The notes under the pieces were generated by a model. That model was not told the DNA's origin. It worked only from the letters and a program-made list of their open reading frames with translations, and did not search any database. The translations under genes and the position numbers were made by a program. A DNA stretch of 64,000 bases, from contig CAZWLY010000009.1 in NCBI GenBank assembly GCA_964634465.1, positions 80,397 through 144,396 on the forward strand, written 5' to 3'. Shown here piece by piece: positions 27,592-61,822 of this stretch (position 1 is the stretch's first letter; the number at the start of each line of letters is the position of its first letter). Source of the DNA: an uncultured Thermodesulfobacteriota bacterium (GTDB lineage: Bacteria > Desulfobacterota > Desulfarculia > G963662305).

Positions 27592-27990
27592 AACCGAGGC
27601 CGGAGGGCCGAGCCGAAGCGCCGGGCGGCTTGGGCCGACTCCAGAACGGTGATCGGCTCGAAGCCGCGAACAAATCGGATCCCCGGGTGACGCGCCCGCC
27701 CGCTGGTCTATCGGCGCCGACCCGGTCGGGCGGAAATGGCGGTTGAACGTCTTGTGACTGGTTGTGACCGGGTTGGGGGGATGTCTTCACCCCGATTCGT
27801 CGGGGTGGTCGCGCAGCCAGCCGAGGAGCGAGCAGGCCGTCGGGACCTGAGGCAGATGAGCCAGAGGATCCGGCGACACATCCTCGTCCGCGTACCGCTG
27901 CTTCCTTCCGGACCTGACGGGGTTGGCGGGGGTTTGTTGCGCTGGTTCCGACTCGTCCTCAGGCCCCGACGGCCTGCTCGCAAAAGGCAT

Positions 27991-28266
27991 TCAGGTATCT
28001 ACCCGTTCCTTGAGCTCCTTGCCCACCTTGAAGAACGGCAGCTTTTTCTTGGAGACCTGGATCACCTCGCCGGTTTTGGGGTTGCGGCCCTGATAACCGT
28101 CGTAGCTCTTGACTTTGAAGCTGCCGAACCCCCTGATCTCGACGCGATCACCTTCGATGAGGGCGTTTTCGATGCTGCCGAAGAACGTGTTGACGATCAA
28201 CTCGGCCTTCTTGATGGTCAAACCCTCTTGCTTGGCCAAGGCTTCGATGAGTTGGGACTTGTTCAT
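27991..28266 (-). CDS. HU/IHF family DNA-binding protein (IHF-like)
   Basis: 'RVEIRGFGSFKVKSYDGYQGRNPKTGEVI...FKVGKELKERV'. Confidence 0.8.
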   Translation of the reverse strand: MNKSQLIEALAKQEGLTIKKAELIVNTFFGSIENALIEGDRVEIRGFGSFKVKSYDGYQGRNPKTGEVIQVSKKKLPFFKVGKELKERVDT

Positions 28267-30425: not shown

Positions 30426-32414
30426 ATGACCGAGACCAACATCGACGAGACCCAGCTCCCTGGGGAGAACAACAACTCCACCGAGGCCGAGGAGGTTCGT
30501 TCCGCGACCGAAGGGGAGGAGACAAAGGAACAGCAGACTGAAGATCCAGGGGGGGTCGAGGTCCTGGCTGACAGCCAAGACGGGGCGTCGGATTCAACTG
30601 CTGAACAAGACGCCGAGGCCGCTTTTGAACCGGCGACCGAAACCGAGACGGCAGCGAGCGAAGAGACTGCCGAGGCCGAAAAGGCCGAGGAAGACGATAC
30701 TGAAGACGAAGATGATACCGAAGGCGAGGGGGGCGAGGAGGCCAGCTTCGCCGATCTGTTCGAGGAATCGCTGGAGCGTATTCAGGAGGGTTCGGTCGTC
30801 TCCGGCGTGGTCGTCCAGGTGACCAGCGACTACGTGGTCGTCGACGTCGGCGCCAAGTCGGAGGGACAGATACCGATCCACGAGTTCGCGACCGACGGCG
30901 CCGAGCCGGTCATCAACGTGGGCGACACCGTAGAGGTCCTCCTGGAGTCCAGCGAGGACGACGAGGGCGGCATCAGGCTCAGCCGGTCCAAGGCGGCCCG
31001 GATCAAGGTCTGGGAGAAGATCGCCCAGGCTTACAAGGAAGGCGAGACCATCAGCGGCACCATCTCCTCCCGGGTCAAGGGCGGCCTGCAGGTGGACGTG
31101 GGCGTGCCCGCGTTCCTGCCCGGCTCCCAGATCGACCTTCGGCCGGTCAGGGACATGGAGAGCCTCATCGGCCAGACCTTCGACTTCAAGGTGCTCAAGT
31201 ATTCCAAGAAGCGCTCCAACGTCGTTCTCTCCCGCCGGGTCCTTCTGGAAGAGGAGCGGGAGGCCAAGAAGGCCGAGCTGTTGAAGGTGCTGGAAGAGGG
31301 CGCCGTGTTGGAGGGCGTGGTCAAGAACATCACCGACTACGGCGTCTTTATAGATCTGGGCGGCATGGACGGCCTGCTTCACATCACCGACATCTCCTGG
31401 GGCCGGGTCGGCCATCCGTCGGAGCGGTTTTCGATCGGCGACAAGGTCACGGTCAAGGTCTTGAACTTCGACCGCGAGCGGGAGCGGGTCTCGCTGGGCA
31501 TGAAGCAGCTCAAGCCCGATCCGTGGGAGAGCGTCCTCGAGCGCTACCCGGTGGCCAGCCGGGTCGAGGGCAAGGTCGTTTCGCTGACCGACTACGGCGC
31601 CTTCGTCGAGGTCGAGGAGGGCGTCGAGGGCCTGGTCCATGTCTCCGAGATGAGCTGGACCCGCAAGATTCGCCACCCCTCCAAGGTGGTCCAGGTCGGC
31701 GACGAGGTCGAGGTGGTCGTGCTCAACGTCGACCCGGAACGCAAGCGGATCAGCCTGGGCATAAAGCAGACCGTGCCCGATCCCTGGGAGACCATCGACG
31801 AACGCTATCCGGTCGGTACGACCATCGAGGGGCGGATCAAGAACGTAACCGACTTCGGCGTCTTCATCGGCATCGAGGACGGGATCGACGGCCTGGTCCA
31901 CATCTCGGATCTTAGCTGGTCCAAGCGGGTCAAGCACCCCAGCGACCTCTACTCCAAGGGCGACGTGGTCAAGGCGGTCGTGCTCAACATCGACAAGGAA
32001 AACCGCCGCTTCTCCCTGGGCATCAAGCAGGCCCAGATCGACCCCTGGGAGAGCGTGGCCGAGCGTTATCCGGTCGGCTCGGTGGTCGAGGGCGAGGTGA
32101 CCAACATCACCGACTTTGGCGTCTTCGTCGAGATCGAACCGGGCGTCGAGGGGCTGATCCACATCTCGGAGATCGCCAAGGAGAAGATCGACTCTCCGGC
32201 CGAGAAGTTCGAAGTCGGGGAGAAGGTTTCGTCCAAGGTGGTTCACCTGTCCCCGACCGATCGTCGGATCGGCTTGTCCATCCGCCGGTTGGAGGAGGAT
32301 GTCGAAGAGGGATCCTATCAGGATTACCTGCGCTCGCGCCAGCAGGAGGCGACCTCCAATCTGGGCGAGCTGATAATGAGCCAGCTCAACGAGAAGAACC
32401 AAGAACAACCGTAG
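30426..32414 (+). CDS. rpsA: 30S ribosomal protein S1 with an acidic N-terminal extension of about 110 aa
   Basis: Six S1 domains are present. The GGAGG RBS sits ahead of the ATG at 30426. Confidence 0.9.
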   Translation: MTETNIDETQLPGENNNSTEAEEVRSATEGEETKEQQTEDPGGVEVLADSQDGASDSTAEQDAEAAFEPATETETAASEETAEAEKAEEDDTEDEDDTEGEGGEEASFADLFEESLERIQEGSVVSGVVVQVTSDYVVVDVGAKSEGQIPIHEFATDGAEPVINVGDTVEVLLESSEDDEGGIRLSRSKAARIKVWEKIAQAYKEGETISGTISSRVKGGLQVDVGVPAFLPGSQIDLRPVRDMESLIGQTFDFKVLKYSKKRSNVVLSRRVLLEEEREAKKAELLKVLEEGAVLEGVVKNITDYGVFIDLGGMDGLLHITDISWGRVGHPSERFSIGDKVTVKVLNFDRERERVSLGMKQLKPDPWESVLERYPVASRVEGKVVSLTDYGAFVEVEEGVEGLVHVSEMSWTRKIRHPSKVVQVGDEVEVVVLNVDPERKRISLGIKQTVPDPWETIDERYPVGTTIEGRIKNVTDFGVFIGIEDGIDGLVHISDLSWSKRVKHPSDLYSKGDVVKAVVLNIDKENRRFSLGIKQAQIDPWESVAERYPVGSVVEGEVTNITDFGVFVEIEPGVEGLIHISEIAKEKIDSPAEKFEVGEKVSSKVVHLSPTDRRIGLSIRRLEEDVEEGSYQDYLRSRQQEATSNLGELIMSQLNEKNQEQP

Positions 32415-51427: not shown

Positions 51428-51471
51428 AGAGGCCCTTGGGAAATCCCAAGGGCCTCTATTTTGCTTTTTTG
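51428..51471 (+). terminator. Intrinsic-terminator-like hairpin (12-bp perfect stem, AAAT loop) followed by T-rich tract; an A-tract on the other side means it could be bidirectional
   Basis: GAGGCCCTTGGG-aaat-CCCAAGGGCCTC-tattttgcttttttgg read from the sequence. Confidence 0.4.
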
Positions 51472-51547
51472 GTGGCGGTGCAGGGACTTGAACCCCGGAC
51501 GCTACGGATATGAGCCGTATGCTCTAACCAACTGAGCTACACCGCCC
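51471..51547 (-). tRNA. tRNA-Met (anticodon CAT); elongator-like D-arm; tRNA-Ile2 (lysidine) cannot be excluded
   Basis: Manual cloverleaf of the reverse complement: GGCGGTG acceptor, GTAGCTCAGTTGGTTAGAGC D-arm, CUCAUAU anticodon loop, TTCAAGT T-loop, encoded CCA. Confidence 0.85.
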
Positions 51548-52133: not shown

Positions 52134-52474
52134 GGGGCGATTATAGACGGGCCCGCCGGCCGGGGAAAGCCTCTCCGGGTCGATCCGGGCGCCGGTTCGC
52201 TCGACGTCGCTCCGGCCGGCCGGTCGATTTTCATCGCCGCCCAGCGTGGGCCGGTTCTGGTTGCGTATTTGTAACCGGACTCGCCGGCCGGTTACGTTTC
52301 CGGTCCGACCGCCGGCATCTATCTGTAACTACCCGCCAAATCGGGCCAAGCTTTCTGTTGCCTTTTTGCGCTGGGGCGTGCTAAAGTACCACTCGGCGCT
52401 CTGTTTAACAAGTTTCGGCACAACCTGACAATTTGCCTCCATACTTCGCCCGGCCCTTTCAGGAGATAACGAGA

Positions 52475-54025
52475 GTGGTCCTGTTGCGGTTTGCGGTTCC
52501 GGTCGTGTTGTTCGCCTTGCTGTCGCTCTGGCCGGGCCGCGCCGCCGCCGAGACGGCCCAAATGGTGCAGGAGCTCTACACCGGGGCCAGGTTCGACGTC
52601 ATGGACGAGAACTACGACGCCGCCCTGGCCAAACTGGTCAAAGCCCAGGAGCTCGCCCCCGAAGACTTGAGAATCGTCACCTTGATGGCCAGGGTCTTCG
52701 CCCTTCAGGGGCGCGAGGACGAAGCCGTCGATCTCTACGACGCCCTGATCGCCCGGGACCCGGCCCGTTTCGGGCTGCTCAATTTCGAAGTCGCCTATCT
52801 CCTTCAAAAAAAGGAGCGTTACGAGGAAGCCCTGGCCCGGTTCAAGGCCGCGGAGAAGGCCGATTTCCTTCGGGCCATCAAGGAACAGGGCCTGACCTAC
52901 ATGAAGCTGGGCAAGTTCGCCGAGGCCGACGCCGCCTTCGCCCGGGTACGCGAAGCCAAGGACGCGCCGCCAAAGACCCGCCAGCTCTTTCTGTACCTGG
53001 GCGCTCAGACCAATTACCATCGCCGGGACTACAAAACGGCGCTCAAGCGCCTGGATAAAGCCTACCGCCTCGATCCAAGTTCGGACCTGGTTTCGGACAT
53101 CAAGGCCTTCCGCAAGACCACGCTCACCGCCATGCGCCAGGCTCGGCCCTGGCGGCTGTACGTGAGCGCCGCCTACCGCTACGACGACAACATCTACCTC
53201 AATCCTTTCGAGGAAAACCCGAGCGGTAAAAAGACGACCGACAAGGGCGACTCCTCCCTCCAGACCGGCCTCACCTTCTCCTACCGGTTGGCCGAGTTGT
53301 TGGGCGCGACCATCGGCCTTACCGCCGGGGCGAGCAAGTTGAGCTACTTCCACGAATCGGCCGCCGATTTCGCCGCCCTGAACATCGGCGCCTACGTCGG
53401 CAAGTCCTGGAAGACGATGGGGGTGAGATTGCCCTACCAGTACACCTACTACTGGGCCGGGGCCAGCCTGGAGGAGAGACTGGCCGCCCACAGCCTGAAC
53501 CCGGTCTTCTTCTGGCAGATGACCGACCGTTTCCGGACCGAGGTCTCGGGTATGGCCCATTGGAAGAACTACCGGGACCAGACTCCGGACGCCTTCTACT
53601 ACGGCCTGGGCGCGGTTCACATCCTGAACTTCGGCGATCAAGCCAAGTACGTCCGCCTGGGCTACCAATTCGCCGTGGAGGACGCCGACGACGGCCAGTC
53701 GGGCTACCGGATCTGGGAGGTGACCCTGGGTGGTGGAGCGCCCATCTACGGCCCGCTGGCCTTCGACCTGGGCCTCACCCTGGCCTACTACACCTACAAC
53801 GAGCGGCCCAGTTGGTACTACGGGTTGTCCGGAACCGAGCCCTTCACCCGGCGCGACAGGCAGATCAGGGTTTCGGTCCGGATAAGCTATCGTTTCTCGG
53901 AGCGGTGGCAGTTCGGTCTGGGCTACTACTTCACCCACAACGACTCCAACGTCGGCGCCAACGACTACGACCCGTTCAAATTTCAAAAAAACCTCTTTAG
54001 CTTGTCGGTTTTCGGGGCCTTCTGA
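52475..54025 (+). CDS. Outer-membrane protein: N-terminal TPR-like helical region plus C-terminal beta-barrel ending in Phe (Slam/DUF560-like architecture)
   Basis: Signal peptide 'LFALLSLWPGRAAAE'. TPR-like region about 30-230. An alternating aromatic/Gly-rich barrel region follows, with C-terminal '...SLSVFGAF'. GTG start after AGGAG. Confidence 0.55.
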   Translation: MVLLRFAVPVVLFALLSLWPGRAAAETAQMVQELYTGARFDVMDENYDAALAKLVKAQELAPEDLRIVTLMARVFALQGREDEAVDLYDALIARDPARFGLLNFEVAYLLQKKERYEEALARFKAAEKADFLRAIKEQGLTYMKLGKFAEADAAFARVREAKDAPPKTRQLFLYLGAQTNYHRRDYKTALKRLDKAYRLDPSSDLVSDIKAFRKTTLTAMRQARPWRLYVSAAYRYDDNIYLNPFEENPSGKKTTDKGDSSLQTGLTFSYRLAELLGATIGLTAGASKLSYFHESAADFAALNIGAYVGKSWKTMGVRLPYQYTYYWAGASLEERLAAHSLNPVFFWQMTDRFRTEVSGMAHWKNYRDQTPDAFYYGLGAVHILNFGDQAKYVRLGYQFAVEDADDGQSGYRIWEVTLGGGAPIYGPLAFDLGLTLAYYTYNERPSWYYGLSGTEPFTRRDRQIRVSVRISYRFSERWQFGLGYYFTHNDSNVGANDYDPFKFQKNLFSLSVFGAF

Positions 54026-54056: not shown

Positions 54057-55145
54057 ATGATCCGGGCGCGCACCATAGTCCTGGCTCTGCTGCTGGCCCT
54101 CGGCGTGGCTTCGTTCGCCGCCGCGGCCGAGCCCCAGGCCATCGGCCGCATCTACGGCGCGGTCGGCGATTGCCGGGTGGTCAACAAGGACTTGGGCCGG
54201 GATCTCGCCGCCCGGAAGGGGATGGCCCTCTACCAAGGCGACACCATCTTCACCGGAGCAGACTCCACGGTCAAGATCGTCCTGGCCGACGACAGCCTGG
54301 TGCGCGTGGGAGCCGAATCGGAGCTGGCTCTCGACCAGTTCAGACTGGACGTCCAGGCCCAGGAGCGCGAGACTACGCTCAGACTGCCTCTGGGTAAGGT
54401 CAAGGTTCTGGTCAACGATCTTTTCGGCTACAAGGAACGCCGCTTCGAGATCAAGACGCCCACCGCCGTGGCCGGTGTTCGCGGTACCTTGATGGCGGTG
54501 ATCGTCGAGTCGCCGTCCCTGACCAGCGTCGTCGGTTACGACAATCCGGTGGTGGTCTACAACCCCGCCTTCCCGGACCAGGTGGTCGTGCTGACCAACG
54601 TCCAGTTGACCCAAGTCTTCGGCGACAACCCGCCCTCAGAGCCCCGTGACTTGACGCCTCAGGAAGAGGAGAGATTCCGGCAGCTCTTCCCCGACATGCC
54701 TGACGAGTCATCGAGCTCGGAGTCCGGCGGTGAGGGCGGCGGCACGGGCGGTACGGGCGGCACGGGTGGAACGGGCGGCACGGGCTCGCCGGGGGTGAGC
54801 GGGAACACGCCGACTACCGTCCAGACCACGACCACCACCGCGCCGACCACAACCACGACCACGACGACGACCACCACCACGACCACGACGACGACCACCA
54901 CCACGACCACCACGACCACGACCGAGCCGACCACCACGACGACGACCACCACCACGACCACGACCACGACCGAGCCGACCACGACCACCACGACGACGAC
55001 CACCACGACGACGACCACCACCACGACCACGACGACGACCACCACTCTGCCTCCGCCGCCGACGACCACGACCACCACCGTCCCGACCACGACCACCACC
55101 ACGACCACCACCACCCTGTCTCCGGGCTTGAGGCCCTGCTCGTAA
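54057..55145 (+). CDS. Secreted FecR-domain protein with a C-terminal poly-threonine tract of about 100 residues
   Basis: Signal peptide, then a FecR-like beta region ('ALYQGDTIFTGADSTVKIVLADDSLVRVGAESEL...'), then (GGT)4 and T-runs interrupted by EP/LPPPP/VP. Confidence 0.7.
   Translation: MIRARTIVLALLLALGVASFAAAAEPQAIGRIYGAVGDCRVVNKDLGRDLAARKGMALYQGDTIFTGADSTVKIVLADDSLVRVGAESELALDQFRLDVQAQERETTLRLPLGKVKVLVNDLFGYKERRFEIKTPTAVAGVRGTLMAVIVESPSLTSVVGYDNPVVVYNPAFPDQVVVLTNVQLTQVFGDNPPSEPRDLTPQEEERFRQLFPDMPDESSSSESGGEGGGTGGTGGTGGTGGTGSPGVSGNTPTTVQTTTTTAPTTTTTTTTTTTTTTTTTTTTTTTTTTEPTTTTTTTTTTTTTTEPTTTTTTTTTTTTTTTTTTTTTTTLPPPPTTTTTTVPTTTTTTTTTTLSPGLRPCS
54800..55115 (+). repeat. Near-perfect ACC/ACG trinucleotide (Thr-codon) repeat, about 300 bp
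   Basis: Read directly: (ACC/ACG/ACA)n with rare GAG-CCG / CCG interruptions. Confidence 0.9.
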
Positions 55146-55236
55146 CCGCCGCCTTGCTCGGGTCAGCCGAATCGGACTTCGTCGGGCTCATTTCCCTGGC
55201 ATTCCCCCCTGTCGCCTTGCCGGTGGAGAGCGGTCG

Positions 55237-57828
55237 ATGAAGCGCTCGGTCCTGATCGACGGTCTGGTCCTGGCCGCCTCGGTCGGCTTTACGGCCTACC
55301 TTTTGCCCTGGTCGCTGGTCCTTTCGCCCTCCATCCCGGCCGGCGGCGACACCACCTCCCACTTCGCCGCCCTGGTCCACTTCAAAGACTACGTCCTGCC
55401 CCAGTGGCGGCTTTGGGGCTGGCACCCCGGCAACCTGGCCGGCTTCCCGCTCTTTCAGTTCTATTTCCCCTTGCCGCCGCTGGTGATCGTCGGCTTGAGC
55501 GCTTTCTGGGGCCTGGCGCCGGCCTTCAAGCTGGGGGCGCTGATCCCGGCCCTGGCCTTGCCGGTGAGCGTCTATTTCTGTTTGAGACGCCTGGGGCTGG
55601 GCTTTCCCGGTCCGGCCTTTGGAGCCGCTTTTTCGCTGAGCTTCCTTCTGGCCGAGACCAATCAGGTCTGGGGCGGCAACCTGGCTTCGATTCTGGCCGG
55701 CGAGATTTGCTACGCCTGGGCCTTCAACCTGGTCCCGATCTACCTGGGGTCGCTGTACGCCTGGATGCGAAGCGACGCGCCGTCCGGCCGAGGGGCGATC
55801 CGGCTGGCCGTCCTGCTCCTCTTCATCGGACTCAGCCACGCCTACGCCCTCTTGTTCGCGCTTGCGACCGGGCTCTACTTCCTTCTGGACCGGGGCCGGT
55901 TCAAGGCGGCCGCGCTGGGCCTGTTCGTCGTCTACGCTCTGGCCTTCTTGCTTTTGGGGCTGTGGCTGATTCCGATGCTGGTCTACACCCCCTTGACCGA
56001 GATGTTCAACTTCGTCTGGGTCGTCGATTCCTGGCGGGAGTTTACGCCGACGACGCTCCTGCCGGTCCTCGTCTTGGCCGCCTTGGCCGGGCCGCTGGCC
56101 TGGCGGTGGGGCGAGACGGTCGATCGGGATCGGGCCGGCTTCCTGCTCTTCTGGGTCGTGGCCGCGGCCAGCCTCTACTTTCTGGCCCCGTTCATGAACT
56201 CGATCACTATCCGCTTCGTCCCCTTCGCCCACCTGGCCGCCGTCCTGTTGGCCGCCCAGGGGCTGAGGCTCATCACCCGCCGCCTGGCCGGGCGCGGTCT
56301 GGTCGCGCTCATCGTCGTCCTCGCTTCGGTGGTCTGGACCGGCGGCCGAATGAATTATCTCGACCGCTGGCTCAGTTGGAACAACGCCGGGCTGGAGGCG
56401 ACGCCGGCCTGGTCGGAGGTCGAGCGCCTGACCGAGTTCCTGCGACCGAAGGGTCCGGCCTGGGAGGCGTCCCGGGTGGTCTACGAGCATTCGCCGCTGA
56501 ACGATCAGGCCGGCACACTCAGAATCTTCGAGTCGCTGCCGATTCTGGCCGGCCGGGCCACCCTGGAGGGCGCCTACCTCCAGGCCAGCCCCAACGCGCC
56601 GTTCATCTTCTACCTCCAGTCAGAGGTCAGCCGCCGCAGCTCGTCGCCCTTGCCCGGCTACGTCTACACTCGGCTCAATCTTGGCCGGGCCGTGGAGCAC
56701 ATGCGCCTCTACAACGTCGGCCAATACATCGTCGTCGAGCCGGAAACCCGGAAATTGGCCGACCGCCAGCCGGGCCTGATTCTGGAGCGGGAGTTCGGGA
56801 GCTACTCGGTCTACCGGGTACTCGGCAACCGGGACGCCTACGCCGTTACGCCCGAGCGGGCCCCGGTGCTGGTCATCACCGATCGACCCCAGGCGATCGC
56901 CTTCGAGTGGTTCAGGTTTTCCGATCTGAAGACGCCGCTCGTCTTCGCCCGCCGGATGCCGGCCGGGGCCGGGGAGCGCTTCGCCGGGGTGTTGATCGAT
57001 TCCGGCCGGGACGACGAGGCGTTGTTCAAGCTGATCAGGGAGAACCGGCTGCCCAAAAAGGAGTTGGCCGGCCGGCCCATCGTCGAGAAGATCGCCCCGG
57101 AGCGAATCGAGCTGAGGGGGCTCCAACCCGGCCGGCCGGTGGTGATCAAGATGTCCTATCACCCGGCCTGGCGGACTTTGAGCGGCGAGGAGATATTCAG
57201 GGTCTCTCCGGCCTTCATGCTCGTCTTCCCCGACTCCGACAGGTTGACCCTGGTCTGCGGCCCGACCTGGGCCAACCACCTCGGCCTGGCGCTGAGCGTC
57301 CTCGGGTTGATCCTGATCGGCCTCCTCGCCTGGCGGCCGGGGTTGGCTTTCCCGCTCCGGCCGGAACCGAGGGGGGCGGAAAGGACCGGGCCCCGGCCGT
57401 GGTTGACGGCGTCGTTGCTCGTGGTGTGGGCGATCGGCCTGGCTGGGCTGTGGAGCCGGCACGACGACGCTTCGACCATCCTGGCCAAAGCCAGGGCGCT
57501 CAGGGCCGAGGGCCGTCTCGAGGAGGCCAGGGCCAAGTTCAGGGAGGGGTTGAAGCGCTTCGAGATGTCGGTCGTGGTCGATTATACGTGGTACGATCTG
57601 GCCATGACCTACTACGCCGGCCGGGATTACGCCGAGGCGGAGAGGCTGCTGAAAGAGGTCGTCCGGCGCTTTCCGGACTCGATCCTCATGCCCGAGACCC
57701 TCTACCACTTGGGTTGGTGCGCTGAAAAGCAGGGCCGGGCGGCCGAGGCCGAAGCGTACTGGCGGCGGCTGAGACAGGAGTTTCCGGAAAGCGGATGGGC
57801 CCAGGAGATTGAGAAGCATGGCTCTTAA
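55237..57828 (+). CDS. Large polytopic membrane protein, GT-C/YfhO-like glycosyltransferase architecture with C-terminal TPR domain
   Basis: About 11-13 N-terminal TM helices with an acidic first-loop motif 'GGDTTSHFAALVHFKD'. A soluble domain of about 320 aa follows, then one more TM helix ('LGLALSVLGLILIGLLAW'), then 3-4 TPRs. The family call is from architecture only. Confidence 0.45.
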   Translation: MKRSVLIDGLVLAASVGFTAYLLPWSLVLSPSIPAGGDTTSHFAALVHFKDYVLPQWRLWGWHPGNLAGFPLFQFYFPLPPLVIVGLSAFWGLAPAFKLGALIPALALPVSVYFCLRRLGLGFPGPAFGAAFSLSFLLAETNQVWGGNLASILAGEICYAWAFNLVPIYLGSLYAWMRSDAPSGRGAIRLAVLLLFIGLSHAYALLFALATGLYFLLDRGRFKAAALGLFVVYALAFLLLGLWLIPMLVYTPLTEMFNFVWVVDSWREFTPTTLLPVLVLAALAGPLAWRWGETVDRDRAGFLLFWVVAAASLYFLAPFMNSITIRFVPFAHLAAVLLAAQGLRLITRRLAGRGLVALIVVLASVVWTGGRMNYLDRWLSWNNAGLEATPAWSEVERLTEFLRPKGPAWEASRVVYEHSPLNDQAGTLRIFESLPILAGRATLEGAYLQASPNAPFIFYLQSEVSRRSSSPLPGYVYTRLNLGRAVEHMRLYNVGQYIVVEPETRKLADRQPGLILEREFGSYSVYRVLGNRDAYAVTPERAPVLVITDRPQAIAFEWFRFSDLKTPLVFARRMPAGAGERFAGVLIDSGRDDEALFKLIRENRLPKKELAGRPIVEKIAPERIELRGLQPGRPVVIKMSYHPAWRTLSGEEIFRVSPAFMLVFPDSDRLTLVCGPTWANHLGLALSVLGLILIGLLAWRPGLAFPLRPEPRGAERTGPRPWLTASLLVVWAIGLAGLWSRHDDASTILAKARALRAEGRLEEARAKFREGLKRFEMSVVVDYTWYDLAMTYYAGRDYAEAERLLKEVVRRFPDSILMPETLYHLGWCAEKQGRAAEAEAYWRRLRQEFPESGWAQEIEKHGS

Positions 57829-60040
57829 ACGGAGAAACATCATCCCCGCCGGTTTGGGACTGGGTTTGACCCTGCTCGTCATGGTTTTATATGTGGTCGG
57901 GACGTCGTTCACCGACCTGATGGAGCTCAAGGCCCTCGACGCCATGTTCCTGTTCCGGGGCCAGGTCCCCATGGTCACCGACAAGGTGGTCGTGGTGGCC
58001 GTGGACGAGCGCAGCCTGGACGAAGCGGGGCGCTGGCCCTGGCCCAGAGAGAAGATGGCGGCCTTGATCAAGGCCGTCTCGGATCAGGGCGCCAAGGCCA
58101 TCGGCCTGGACATCGGCTTCTTCGAGCCGGACAATCGCTTCGACGCCCAGACCATCCTGGCCATCAATCGGGCGGCCGAGGCGGGCAAACCGCTGTCGTT
58201 GGAGGAGATCGTCGCCCGCTTCCACCCGGATTACGTCCTGGCCCAGACCATCGCCTCCATTCCGGCCGAGGTGGTCCTGGGCTACTTCTTCCACATGTCC
58301 AAGGAGGCGGTCTCCCACCTCAAGGCCGAGGAGATCAAGGCCCGCCGCCGGGCCATCGACCGCTTCGCCTTTCCGGCCGTCCGCTATCGCTCCGAGGCGG
58401 CCATGGAACGGCCGCTGGTGACCGCCTACGCTCCGGAGAACAATCAGCCCGTTCTCATCCAGGCCGCCCGGGCGGCCGGCTACTTCAACATCATTCCCGA
58501 CGGGGACGGCGTGGCCCGACGGATCAACCTGGTCATCCAGTGCGGCGATCGCCTCTATCCGGCCATGAGTCTGGTCACCCTGTCGCGCTTTTGGGGGGTG
58601 CCGCTGCCGGTGGTGGACGTCAAGGACTTCGGCCTGGAGAGCCTGACGCTGGGTCCGGTGAGGATCCCGGTGGACGAGAAGGGCCGGGCCTGGATCAACT
58701 TCCGGGGCGGACGGGGCGCGGTGCCCCGCTACGAGGCGGTGGACGTGCTCAGGGGCAAGCTGCCCAAGGGCGCGCTCAAGGACAAGGCGGTCATCCTCGG
58801 CGTGTCGGCCACCGGCGTCGGCGACGTCCGGGCGACGCCCTTCGAGACCACCCATCCCGGCGTGGAGATCCAGGCCCAGGTCGTGGACAACATCCTCTCC
58901 GGCCAGTTCCTCTTCCGGCCGTCCTGGGCCCGCCTCTTCGACCTGATCGCCATCTTGGGTCTGGGCCTGATCGCCGCCTTCGTCATGAGCGCGCTCAGGC
59001 CCAGCCGCGGCTGGTGGGTGGTCGCCGTTCTGGGCGTCGGCTTCGTCATCCTCGGCTACCAGTTGTTCTTGCAGGGCTACCTCCTCAACCTGACCCACCC
59101 CTTGCTGGCCTTGGTGGTCAGCGCCGTGGGGTTGACGGCCTATCGCTACCTGACCGAAGAGAGGGAGAAGAAGTACATCCGCCACGCCTTCCAGCACTAT
59201 CTCAACCCGTCGGTCATCGAGCAGGTGGTCAGCCACCCCGAGGGGCTGAAACTGGGCGGCCAGAAGCGGGTGCTGACCGTGCTCTTCTCCGACATCCGGG
59301 GCTTCACCTCCATCTCCGAGAAACTGGAGCCCGAGGTTCTATCCCACGCCCTCAACACTTACCTGGACAGGATGACCGAGGTCGTGTTCGAGCACGACGG
59401 CGTTTTGGACAAATACATCGGCGACGCGGTCATGGCCTTTTTCGGCGCGCCCATGGACCAGCCCGATCACGCCGCCCGGGCCTGCCGGACGGCGCTGAGG
59501 ATGGTCGAGGAGCTGAAGAAACTGGGGGCGTTCTTCGACGAGATGGGCGTGCCCCACTGGCAGATCGGCATCGGCATCAACACCGGGCCGATGGTCGTCG
59601 GGAATCTCGGCTCCCGCTTGAGGTTCGACTACACCGTCATCGGCGACAACGTGAACACCGCCTCCCGCCTGGAGGGCCAGACCAAGGGCTACGGCGTGGG
59701 CATCATCGTCGGCCAGGCCACGGTGGAGGAGTGTCGGGACCGGTTCCATTTCCGGATCCTGGACCTGATCAGGGTCAAGGGCAAGACCGAACCGGTGGCC
59801 ATCTATGAGCTGGTCGGGCCGGCCGAGGAGCCCAAGCCGGAGATCGTCGATCTGGCCGAGACGGCCTTCAAGACCTATCTCGATCGGGACTTCGCCTTGG
59901 CCGAGGCTCTGCTGGAGCAGATTCTCAGCGTCGATCCCGGCGACGCCCCGGCCGCGCTGCTGAAGGCCCGCTGCCGGGAACTGATAGCCAACCCGCCGCC
60001 CGAAGACTGGGACGGGGTGGAGACCAAGACGACCAAGTGA
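57818..60040 (+). CDS. CHASE2 sensor domain adenylate/guanylate cyclase
   Basis: N-terminal TM plus CHASE2 ('VVVAVDERSLDEAGRWPWPR'), three TM helices, then the class III cyclase core 'VLTVLFSDIRGFTSISE...YIGDAVMAFFGAP'. The ATG at 57818 after AGGAG overlaps the upstream gene by 11 nt. Confidence 0.85.
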   Translation: MALKRRNIIPAGLGLGLTLLVMVLYVVGTSFTDLMELKALDAMFLFRGQVPMVTDKVVVVAVDERSLDEAGRWPWPREKMAALIKAVSDQGAKAIGLDIGFFEPDNRFDAQTILAINRAAEAGKPLSLEEIVARFHPDYVLAQTIASIPAEVVLGYFFHMSKEAVSHLKAEEIKARRRAIDRFAFPAVRYRSEAAMERPLVTAYAPENNQPVLIQAARAAGYFNIIPDGDGVARRINLVIQCGDRLYPAMSLVTLSRFWGVPLPVVDVKDFGLESLTLGPVRIPVDEKGRAWINFRGGRGAVPRYEAVDVLRGKLPKGALKDKAVILGVSATGVGDVRATPFETTHPGVEIQAQVVDNILSGQFLFRPSWARLFDLIAILGLGLIAAFVMSALRPSRGWWVVAVLGVGFVILGYQLFLQGYLLNLTHPLLALVVSAVGLTAYRYLTEEREKKYIRHAFQHYLNPSVIEQVVSHPEGLKLGGQKRVLTVLFSDIRGFTSISEKLEPEVLSHALNTYLDRMTEVVFEHDGVLDKYIGDAVMAFFGAPMDQPDHAARACRTALRMVEELKKLGAFFDEMGVPHWQIGIGINTGPMVVGNLGSRLRFDYTVIGDNVNTASRLEGQTKGYGVGIIVGQATVEECRDRFHFRILDLIRVKGKTEPVAIYELVGPAEEPKPEIVDLAETAFKTYLDRDFALAEALLEQILSVDPGDAPAALLKARCRELIANPPPEDWDGVETKTTK

Positions 60041-61745: not shown

Positions 61746-61822
61746 GCCCCCGTAGCTCAGGAGGATAGAGCACCAGATTCCTAATCTGGGTGTCGGGAGT
61801 TCGAATCTCTCCGGGGGTACCA
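61746..61822 (+). tRNA. tRNA-Arg (anticodon CCT)
   Basis: Manual cloverleaf: GCCCCCG acceptor (G1-U72), GTAGCTCAGGAGGATAGAGC D-arm, anticodon loop UUCCUAA, T-loop TTCGAAT, encoded CCA. Confidence 0.85.

Follow-up and report, generated by a model that had tools for sequence, protein, structure and literature searches.

What does a bacterial protein do with a tail made almost entirely of threonine, and is such a tail a property of the protein or of a slippery DNA repeat? The question is raised by a 64,000-nucleotide stretch of contig CAZWLY010000009.1 from an uncultured Thermodesulfobacteriota bacterium, which is referred to here as the window. In it, an open reading frame (ORF) at 54057..55145 (+) encodes an exported FecR-domain protein of 362 aa, whose low-complexity C-terminal tail contains a long Thr tract (FecR-polyThr; Pfam and translation). 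Here, we report that the tract is near certainly a disordered, Thr-rich tail selected at the protein level. The gene immediately downstream encodes a membrane enzyme of the glycosyltransferase C (GT-C) fold, whose linkage to Thr tails recurs in several gene orders. We lean towards the view that the tract forms a disordered stalk of the mucin type, which this adjacent enzyme, itself ending in tetratricopeptide repeats (TPR), O-glycosylates in the periplasm from a lipid-linked sugar.

The N terminus of FecR-polyThr, MIRARTIVLALLLALGVASFAAAA followed by E, reads as a Sec signal peptide-like sequence without a lipobox. The FecR domain (aa 62-154; 54240..54518, +) scored 48.8 bits against PF04773 (E = 9.8e-13), which exceeds the gathering cut-off of 24 bits and makes the protein a member of the family. 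Partial, sub-threshold similarity of the domain to LipL45/Lsa33 of Leptospira was also seen; membership in the LipL45 or Lsa33 family was rejected, with the NCBIfam models scoring far under their cut-offs. The segment between the FecR domain and the Thr tract is acidic and rich in Ser and Gly. Within it, (GGT)5 forms the Gly-rich beginning of the disordered tail and is encoded by 5.3 copies of a 9-bp tandem repeat, GGCGGCACG (84% matches; 54738..54785, +; Tandem Repeats Finder). Analogous Gly-Thr or GGGEETTTTAA repeats were noted in the related loci L083 and L004, the contig of the latter stopping inside the repeat.

The Thr tract itself occupies 54825..55115 (+) in a window of 64.9% GC, and 84 of its 97 codons encode Thr. 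This core is built of runs of 5, 26, 14, 23, 6, and 10 Thr residues separated by AP, EP, EP, LPPPP, and VP, and Thr accounts for 87 of the 113 C-terminal residues of the translated ORF. The original prediction had described 54800-55115 as a near-perfect ACC/ACG repeat encoding about 100 consecutive threonines and divided into sub-blocks by interruptions. A Thr-coding ACS (ACC/ACG) tract does lie there on the + strand, and the interruptions do split it into sub-blocks, but the description was overstated, since the longest uninterrupted run is 26 residues. The + reading frame is secure because the tract continues in frame from the FecR domain and the homologues (n = 17) keep Thr tails in the same frame. 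Two minus-strand ORFs over the tract (54659-55114 and 54814-56490) were dismissed as artefacts of high GC content, since the + frame continues the Pfam domain and is kept in homologues. No tRNA or Rfam features overlapping the tract were found. After the stalk, the translated protein closes with the motif LSPGLRPCS (55116..55142, +).

When the N-terminal 223 aa of FecR-polyThr were used as the query in a protein search, 16 relatives were obtained, all with low-complexity C-terminal tails. Among these, P0004 has a Thr-rich tail, P0001 and P0003 have TPPGQ repeats, and the others are Pro/Ala/Gly-rich. In addition, GTDB genomes and JGI metagenomes were scanned with a domain alignment, which yielded 159 loci, and the ORFs of these loci were called and searched with purpose-built hidden Markov models (HMMs); gene calling in the 65%-GC window was based on GC content at third codon positions (GC3). 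Across the 159 loci, Thr-rich tails were confined to the nearest clade, comprising Thermodesulfobacteriota, Desulfobacterales, and Desulfarculaceae-type metagenome-assembled genomes (MAGs). Distant relatives carried Pro/Gly/Ala-rich, Ala/Gly-rich, or TPPGQ-repeat tails. The 18 Thr-rich tails that were measured range from 40 to 266 aa in length, with mixed codons and a longest T-run of 50, and their owners are 35-60% identical in the domain. This set includes L167 and L169, which pattern-based scans missed because their motif differs (TSTAIA and QIRTPTAV). With such tails common in its clade, the repeat by itself is moderately unusual.

The tails also share a way of ending. Those of the window subclade finish in ..RPCS, ..KPCS (L083, 978-2060), or ..KPCN (L167, 6852-7946), with Cys at position -2, and those of the other subclade finish in ..LPGPPxPP or ..LPxPPGLPQ (motifs seen among L009, L010, L085, L088, and L091). 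These terminal motifs may be docking peptides for a TPR domain. Tail composition is conserved but sequence and length are not; with the terminal motifs, this suggests that the Thr segment would serve as a spacer before a docking peptide.

An adjacent glycosyltransferase, for which the original prediction had proposed a check, is indeed present. The next gene (55237..57828, +) encodes a PF10131 (PTPS_related) membrane protein, a candidate O-glycosyltransferase, with a GT-C membrane domain, a soluble domain, two further transmembrane (TM) helices, and a C-terminal TPR domain. PF10131 matched residues 73-546 with 110.2 bits against a cut-off of 26.4 bits, together with TPR families, and no PMT, PMT_2, or TMTC (DUF1736) Pfam matches were found in the protein. 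A phmmer search of PDB sequences matched the TPR part alone, and a fold search was needed to show the GT-C architecture. The AlphaFold2 (AF2) model, built with 60 homologues, reached a mean predicted local distance difference test (pLDDT) score of 94.4 and a predicted template modelling (pTM) score of 0.93. Its Foldseek matches in the PDB were AftD (E = 1.9e-8), STT3/OST (8e-6), AglB (1.4e-5), the DPY19 C-mannosyltransferase (2.7e-5), ArnT (8.8e-5), and Pmt4 (2.8e-3). More than 328 relatives of the protein were scored in a single search. PF10131 belongs to the GT-C clan (Pfam CL0111). HHpred relates it to the N-terminal half of each of TMTC1-4, with E about 1e-14 to 1e-16, and the family is described as one of unknown function (PMC7801869).

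The model and the alignment also suggest where the chemistry would take place. GT-C enzymes carry a catalytic acid in the region just after TM1. In the window enzyme a GGDxxSH motif lies just past TM1, in which G36 never varies among the 60 homologues and G37, D38, and S41 are each conserved to 90% or more; by analogy, D38 is the putative catalytic acid. The two further TM helices, which follow the soluble domain, are split by an Arg-rich loop (residues 700-720). Under the positive-inside rule, and by analogy with other GT-C enzymes, this loop would return the TPR domain to the periplasm. The C terminus matches YbgF-type periplasmic TPR domains.

The linkage between PF10131 enzymes and Thr tails was examined in both directions. 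For the forward direction, a 60-sequence PF10131 HMM was used (E < 1e-3), and the counts were taken over loci in which the FecR gene is flanked by more than 4 kb on each side. PF10131 genes were detected in the window and in L001, L007, L009, L010, L085, L087, and L088, all of which have Thr tails, and in no other fetched locus. Within about 10 kb, 6 of 9 Thr-tail loci had a PF10131 gene, compared with 0 of 51 others (Fisher p = 1.7e-6, not corrected for phylogeny and with L007 and L087 near-duplicates). For the reverse direction, the five nearest PF10131 homologues sampled were inspected, and two adjoin a FecR-polyThr gene. One, P0025 (L167; 58% identical to the window GT-C enzyme), keeps the window order: a FecR-polyThr gene, whose 364-aa product has a T-run of 33 and ends in KPCN, followed by the GT-C gene and a CHASE2 cyclase gene. 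The other, P0033 (L169/L170; 52% identical), follows a barrel gene, a FecR-polyThr gene (319 aa), and a gene for a 239-aa protein.

Four gene orders were recorded in total. FecR, GT-C, and CHASE2 follow one another in the window and L167; barrel, FecR, small protein, and GT-C do so in L169; a GT2 gene and the GT-C gene are divergent from barrel, FecR, and beta-helix genes in L001, L007, L010, and L088; and GT-C precedes CHASE2, barrel, and FecR in L085. Two PF10131 subfamilies are involved, since the enzymes of the third order (P0121) are only about 36% identical to the window enzyme, compared with 52-62% for the others. Thus, the adjacency of FecR-polyThr and GT-C genes arose more than once. 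The window and about ten related loci place a PF10131 enzyme beside an unusually clean candidate acceptor, the poly-Thr tail, which makes for a directly testable enzyme-substrate pair in a large GT-C family.

The GT2 enzymes beside the GT-C gene in L001, L007, L010, and L171 are 238-259 aa long, and those of L001 and L171 are 52% identical. Of the solved proteins, those most closely related to them are ArnC (4.5e-13), GtrB, and Dol-P-Man synthase, all of which supply GT-C enzymes with donors of the polyprenyl-phosphate monosaccharide type.

Several further features of the PF10131 loci were noted. A conserved protein of 239-274 aa is encoded directly upstream of the PF10131 gene in L165 (7180-8004), L166 (7159-7950), L169 (7285-8004), and L171 (7181-7996) and is absent beside that of the window. 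All copies have a C-terminal TM anchor, the full-length ones (L165, L166) a signal peptide, and faint Ig-like Pfam hints were seen. In L171 (11015-13059 and 14345-15676), a B12-binding radical SAM enzyme and the GT2 are encoded downstream of PF10131, with an IS605 OrfB/Cas12f-like TnpB nearby. Apart from these loci, a 1475-aa ORF of a Binatia MAG (L080, 11592-16019) has 39 Thr in a 40-residue span, but its setting is unrelated and PF10131 is absent from the vicinity.

Taken together, these observations make the following mechanism the most likely one. FecR-polyThr would be exported by Sec, and its Thr tail would be O-glycosylated on the periplasmic side by the PF10131-TPR enzyme encoded immediately downstream, whose TPR domain may recognise the substrate. 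The donor would be a polyprenyl-phosphate sugar supplied by an ArnC/GtrB-type GT2 encoded outside the window. The glycans would stiffen and extend the chain and shield it from proteases, turning a poly-Thr stalk of about 100 residues, which joins the folded FecR-type domain to the short C-terminal motif, into a spacer or tether across the envelope. If so, this may be one way in which Gram-negative anaerobes come to have O-glycosylated disordered regions. Of the mucin-like stalk that the original prediction had proposed, the exported disordered Thr tail and the neighbouring GT-C enzyme are present, and glycosylation itself is inferred from genomic context, not from biochemistry.

A number of observations weigh against glycosylation of the tail, and most of them favour instead an entropic spacer that stays unmodified. 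According to this alternative, the Thr tail is an interchangeable low-complexity linker, and the GT-C enzyme acts on a different target, such as a lipid, a glycan, or further proteins of the envelope. The Pro/Gly/Ala-rich, Ala/Gly-rich, and TPPGQ-repeat tails of related proteins speak for it, and those relatives presumably work without glycosylation. Among loci with Thr tails, L005, L006, and L008 (with 20 kb of sequence) have no GT-C gene or other glycosyltransferase gene nearby, and none was found near the Thr-tail gene of L083. From the enzyme's side, the 8 kb around P0018, P0022, and P0041 (L165, L166, and L171) contain neither a FecR gene nor a Thr-rich one; with three of the five nearest homologues lacking a Thr-rich neighbour, the enzyme family is not dedicated to a Thr-tail substrate. 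Moreover, no GT2 donor-synthase gene was found in the 64-kb window, and the co-occurrence is uncorrected for shared ancestry; the independent events number perhaps 3-4.

Against an unmodified spacer stand the linkage itself (6 of 9 Thr-tail loci versus none of the 51 non-Thr loci) and the re-creation of the adjacency in at least four gene orders from two enzyme subfamilies. In addition, the window GT-C gene separates the FecR gene from the CHASE2 gene, two genes that adjoin each other in L002, L005, and L006, and it overlaps the cyclase start. On balance, we regard the unmodified spacer as possible but rather unlikely, and glycosylation of the stalk by the adjacent enzyme is the reading that we carry forward.

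The gene directly upstream of FecR-polyThr (52475..54025, +) suggests a further alternative, in which the tail ends up on the cell surface. It encodes an outer-membrane protein with a signal peptide, a periplasmic TPR domain, and a 14-strand beta-barrel (Pfam, AF2 model, and Foldseek). P0137 is 100% identical to this protein, with 516 aa and a start 14 codons downstream of the longest-ORF start. In many related loci, the gene immediately before the FecR gene encodes such a barrel, which is a very widespread FecR partner, and no paper linking DUF560 with FecR was found in a literature search. In Pfam, the protein matched TPR families and, at 23.0 bits against a cut-off of 22 bits, SlipAM (PF04575), which is borderline. 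The AF2 model, built on a shallow, 2-sequence alignment (pLDDT 79), shows the TPR domain and 14 strands; its best solved Foldseek matches were BcsC (3e-13), OmpG (TMt 0.73), CymA, FadL, and PelBC. A profile of the barrel family matched PDB sequences only in the TPR part. BcsC and PelB export linear polymers.

It is therefore conceivable that the TPR-barrel exports the Thr tail, or the whole protein, through the outer membrane, so that the stalk would become a cell-surface glyco-filament. The position of the barrel gene in so many loci, the weak Slam/DUF560 and TPR_Slam matches, and the resemblance of the modelled TPR plus 14-strand barrel to the polymer exporters BcsC and PelB all point in this direction. 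However, only 7 of 29 barrel homologues match SlipAM (16 of 29 match TPR_Slam), no Slam structure was among the Foldseek matches, the model derives from two sequences, and the barrel, which occurs together with non-Thr-tailed relatives as well, is not specific to the Thr tract. Surface threading is thus doubtful, and it would be compatible with O-glycosylation of the tail.

The fourth gene places FecR-polyThr in a signalling context. It encodes a CHASE2 sensor fused to a class III adenylate/guanylate cyclase (57818..60040, +; CHASE2, 5.7e-60; Guanylate_cyc, 1.1e-24), and the 740-aa gene was called in identical Logan contigs. The TPR-barrel, FecR-polyThr, GT-C, and cyclase genes are co-directional and have an operon-like layout, with gaps of 31 and 91 bp followed by an 11-bp overlap at which the cyclase start meets the GT-C stop. 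A sigma-70-like promoter sequence (TTAACA-16-GACAAT; 52405..52432, +) lies directly upstream of the cluster; it is a consensus match only (9/12). Terminator-like sites inside the cluster were not above shuffle expectation. CHASE2 genes occur near FecR genes in dozens of the fetched loci.

Thus arranged, this conserved module looks like an envelope-spanning signalling device, in which a TPR-barrel protein of the outer membrane, a FecR-domain partner, and an inner-membrane CHASE2 receptor cyclase would act together in envelope signalling. CHASE2 receptors would thereby gain a defined accessory set, namely an outer-membrane TPR-barrel and a FecR-domain protein with a tunable spacer. A bolder proposal would make the PF10131-TPR enzymes the bacterial counterpart of TMTC/PMT and the glycosylated poly-Thr "mucin" of the FecR-type co-sensor a surface antenna or tether, threaded through the BcsC/Slam-like TPR-barrel and controlling the CHASE2 cAMP/cGMP cyclase. 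We consider this improbable as a whole; if true, PF10131 would acquire both a first function and a first pair of enzyme and substrate.

The partner genes vary among Thr-tail loci. In the second Thr-tail subclade, FecR-polyThr is followed by the gene for a right-handed beta-helix/NosD-like protein in place of the CHASE2 cyclase gene (L007, 10921-13119; L009, 7496-9764; L010, 7040-10039). In L008, the gene in this position encodes a 2664-aa PKD/Ig-repeat protein. The flanks of the window cluster are made up of housekeeping genes: upstream ptsI, smpB, tRNA-Met (CAT; 51470-51546, -), and a VanZ-like gene, and downstream a flavodoxin-like FMN reductase gene, an isochorismatase-family gene, and tRNA-Arg (CCT; 61746-61822, +). 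Elsewhere in the window, a bacterial large signal recognition particle (SRP) RNA lies at 27821-28031 (-), and a repeat with a 261-bp period (31698-32170) lies within a 662-aa ORF (30426-32414), where it may represent a repeated protein domain.

Is the tract, on the other hand, a product of the DNA itself? The original prediction expected it to be hypermutable by slipped-strand mispairing, with in-frame linker-length variation as the result; it would then be a contingency locus that generates such variants within populations. At the DNA level, its near-perfect trinucleotide repeat does not exist. The Thr codons of the tail (50 ACC, 34 ACG, 2 ACT, and 1 ACA) are interleaved, and the longest pure codon runs are (ACC)4, or 12 bp, and (ACG)3. 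Tandem Repeats Finder reported a period-3 array of 94 copies with only 74% matches at 54825-55115, and the best-scoring period was 24 bp (11 copies, 78% matches, score 272). The self-identity of the tract remained at about 0.67-0.75 across shifts of 3 to 99 bp, and only the invariant A and C positions matched consistently; therefore, third positions agree scarcely above chance. In this tract, no long run of identical units able to misalign without a mismatch was found.

The codon pattern was compared with several expectations. ACG makes up 39% of the tract, compared with 20% in 26 other window genes (chi-square p = 3e-4), so that it is the minor codon that is enriched. A longest pure run of 4 or fewer codons has a probability of 0.0008 under genome Thr usage (ACC 75%, ACG 20%) and of 0.07 against shuffles of the tract's own codons. 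Mixed codons are the rule in all 13 homologous tails examined, which span 40-66% GC and have a longest pure codon run of 3-5 in every case. The longest exact internal repeat is a 44-bp direct repeat (54858..54901 and, 144 bp downstream, 55002..55045; both +). Synonymous-codon shuffles are expected to give 28.5 ± 4.1 bp, and 9 of 1000 shuffles reached 44 bp (p = 0.009).

Strains and species were also compared at homologous loci. The strain pair L167/L168 differs by 2 single-nucleotide polymorphisms (SNPs) in 9 kb, and 343 bp of the tail are identical; the pair L007/L087 differs by 5 SNPs in 19.8 kb with zero gaps, and the tracts are identical. The comparison of repeat length among strains thus revealed no difference within either near-identical pair. 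Between species, tail length does vary, with the range of 40 to 266 aa given above, and even species pairs 77-79% identical in the domain differ in the tail (e.g., 161 versus 117 aa, with T-runs of 33 versus 50).

The interspecies variation, the 44-bp internal duplication, and the breaking of short-k assemblies within the tract could be taken as signs of a contingency locus. However, with a pure repeat of at most 12 bp, an enriched minor codon, mixed codons in the homologues, identical tracts within strain pairs, and internal repeats of 31 bp or more that account for the breaks at k = 31, we consider such a locus quite improbable, and hypermutability is not supported: the codons are scrambled, and none is repeated more than four times. 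From the scrambled codons, the identical strain pairs, the interspecies differences, and the 44-bp duplication, we conclude that tract length evolves slowly through occasional block duplication or deletion, a contingency-locus mechanism being improbable, and that the tract is selected at the protein level for poly-Thr. Rare events of this kind would let the length drift between species. The interleaving of synonymous codons may reflect selection against slippage, which would keep the tract genetically stable, or selection for balance over two tRNAs, which would spread the load. For genome scanning, the consequence is that a striking run of one amino acid does not by itself indicate a hypermutable stretch of DNA, since interleaved codons uncouple the two.

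Assembly support for the tract was drawn from two independent k = 31 Logan assemblies (SRR15988951 and SRR15988953), which match the window with zero mismatches on both tract flanks, and the tract edges are thus independently confirmed. The Logan contigs break inside the tract, one stopping at 54881 and two others beginning at 55085, because internal repeats of at least 31 bp (maximum, 44 bp) are present; assemblers with k above 44 could therefore resolve it. The two genes flanking FecR-polyThr are listed in the protein tables of a 216,833-bp NCBI contig, and the exact FecR-polyThr sequence had no match in a 15-billion-protein collection. Short-read contigs repeatedly end within Thr-rich tails (L163/L164 start, L173 end, L168 start, and L004 end), so that such genes are probably under-represented or truncated in MAG protein catalogues. 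That the tract or its length is an artefact of mis-assembled low-complexity reads might be argued from these terminations in several assemblies and from the central ~203 bp of the tract, whose length comes from the source assembly alone, but for the existence of the tract this is very unlikely, given edges that match without mismatch in two independent runs, a frame held through to the conserved C-terminal motif, equivalent tails in 17 other assemblies, and a longest internal repeat of merely 44 bp.

In comparison with known systems, the tract resembles simple-sequence contingency loci in being a short-period tandem repeat within the coding region of an envelope protein. It differs from them in its non-identical, ACC/ACG-interleaved units, with pure runs of at most 12 bp, and in that no strain-level polymorphism was seen at the homologous loci.

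As for the signalling module, the Burkholderia BiofilmReg operon encodes a LysM-FecR protein beside a CHASE2 histidine kinase (PMC5192318). The two have in common an exported FecR-domain protein encoded beside a CHASE2 membrane receptor. In the window, however, the output is a class III cyclase, LysM is absent, and a TPR-barrel outer-membrane partner is added; neither a low-complexity or poly-Thr tail nor a GT-C gene is described for the BiofilmReg-type operons. The barrel, in turn, recalls Slam/type XI secretion (DUF560) and the BcsC/PelB TPR-barrel exporters, with an N-terminal periplasmic TPR domain, a C-terminal barrel, and a gene beside that of the putative cargo. Unlike in those systems, Pfam support is borderline, the cargo is neither a TbpB-like lipoprotein nor a polysaccharide, and translocation is putative.

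Eukaryotic TMTC1-4/PMT and actinobacterial Pmt share with the proposed system a GT-C membrane domain, a polyprenyl-phosphate-sugar donor, and Ser/Thr-rich targets. The TMTCs also have a C-terminal TPR domain, as the window enzyme does, and Pmt4 and DPY19 are among the Foldseek matches of its model. However, the window enzyme belongs to PF10131 and not to PMT, PMT_2, or DUF1736, so that the resemblance is one of architecture (GT-C plus TPR) and clan. Preceding its TPR domain are an additional soluble domain, rich in beta structure, and two additional TM helices, and in sequence it is 9-14% identical to GT-C enzymes of solved structure.

The closest functional parallel is found in streptococci, where GtrB and the GT-C enzyme PgtC2 glucosylate extracytoplasmic poly-Ser/Thr disordered regions and shield them from proteolysis (Rahman et al. 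2025, PMC12041528). As in the GtrB/PgtC2 (and Pgf) systems, the window holds an exported protein, with its signal peptide-like N terminus, in which a disordered tract of this kind lies next to a folded extracytoplasmic domain, here FecR, and it holds the gene for a GT-C-fold transferase (55237-57828). The proposed pairing of a GT2 polyprenyl-phosphate-sugar synthase with a GT-C transferase and the proposed protection and extension of the disordered region would be further likenesses. The streptococcal hosts are Gram-positive, however, and their GT-C enzyme lacks a TPR domain and falls in the YfhO family instead of PF10131; its substrates are many housekeeping membrane proteins that are not encoded beside the enzyme. 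The system of the window belongs to a Gram-negative host, has one linked candidate substrate within a signalling operon, and is predicted from sequence context. Thus, O-glycosylation of Ser/Thr-rich disordered regions by a GT2 and GT-C pair is already known, and what would be new here is an uncharacterised GT-C family with a TMTC-like TPR domain, a Gram-negative host, and a dedicated neighbouring substrate within a CHASE2 cyclase operon.

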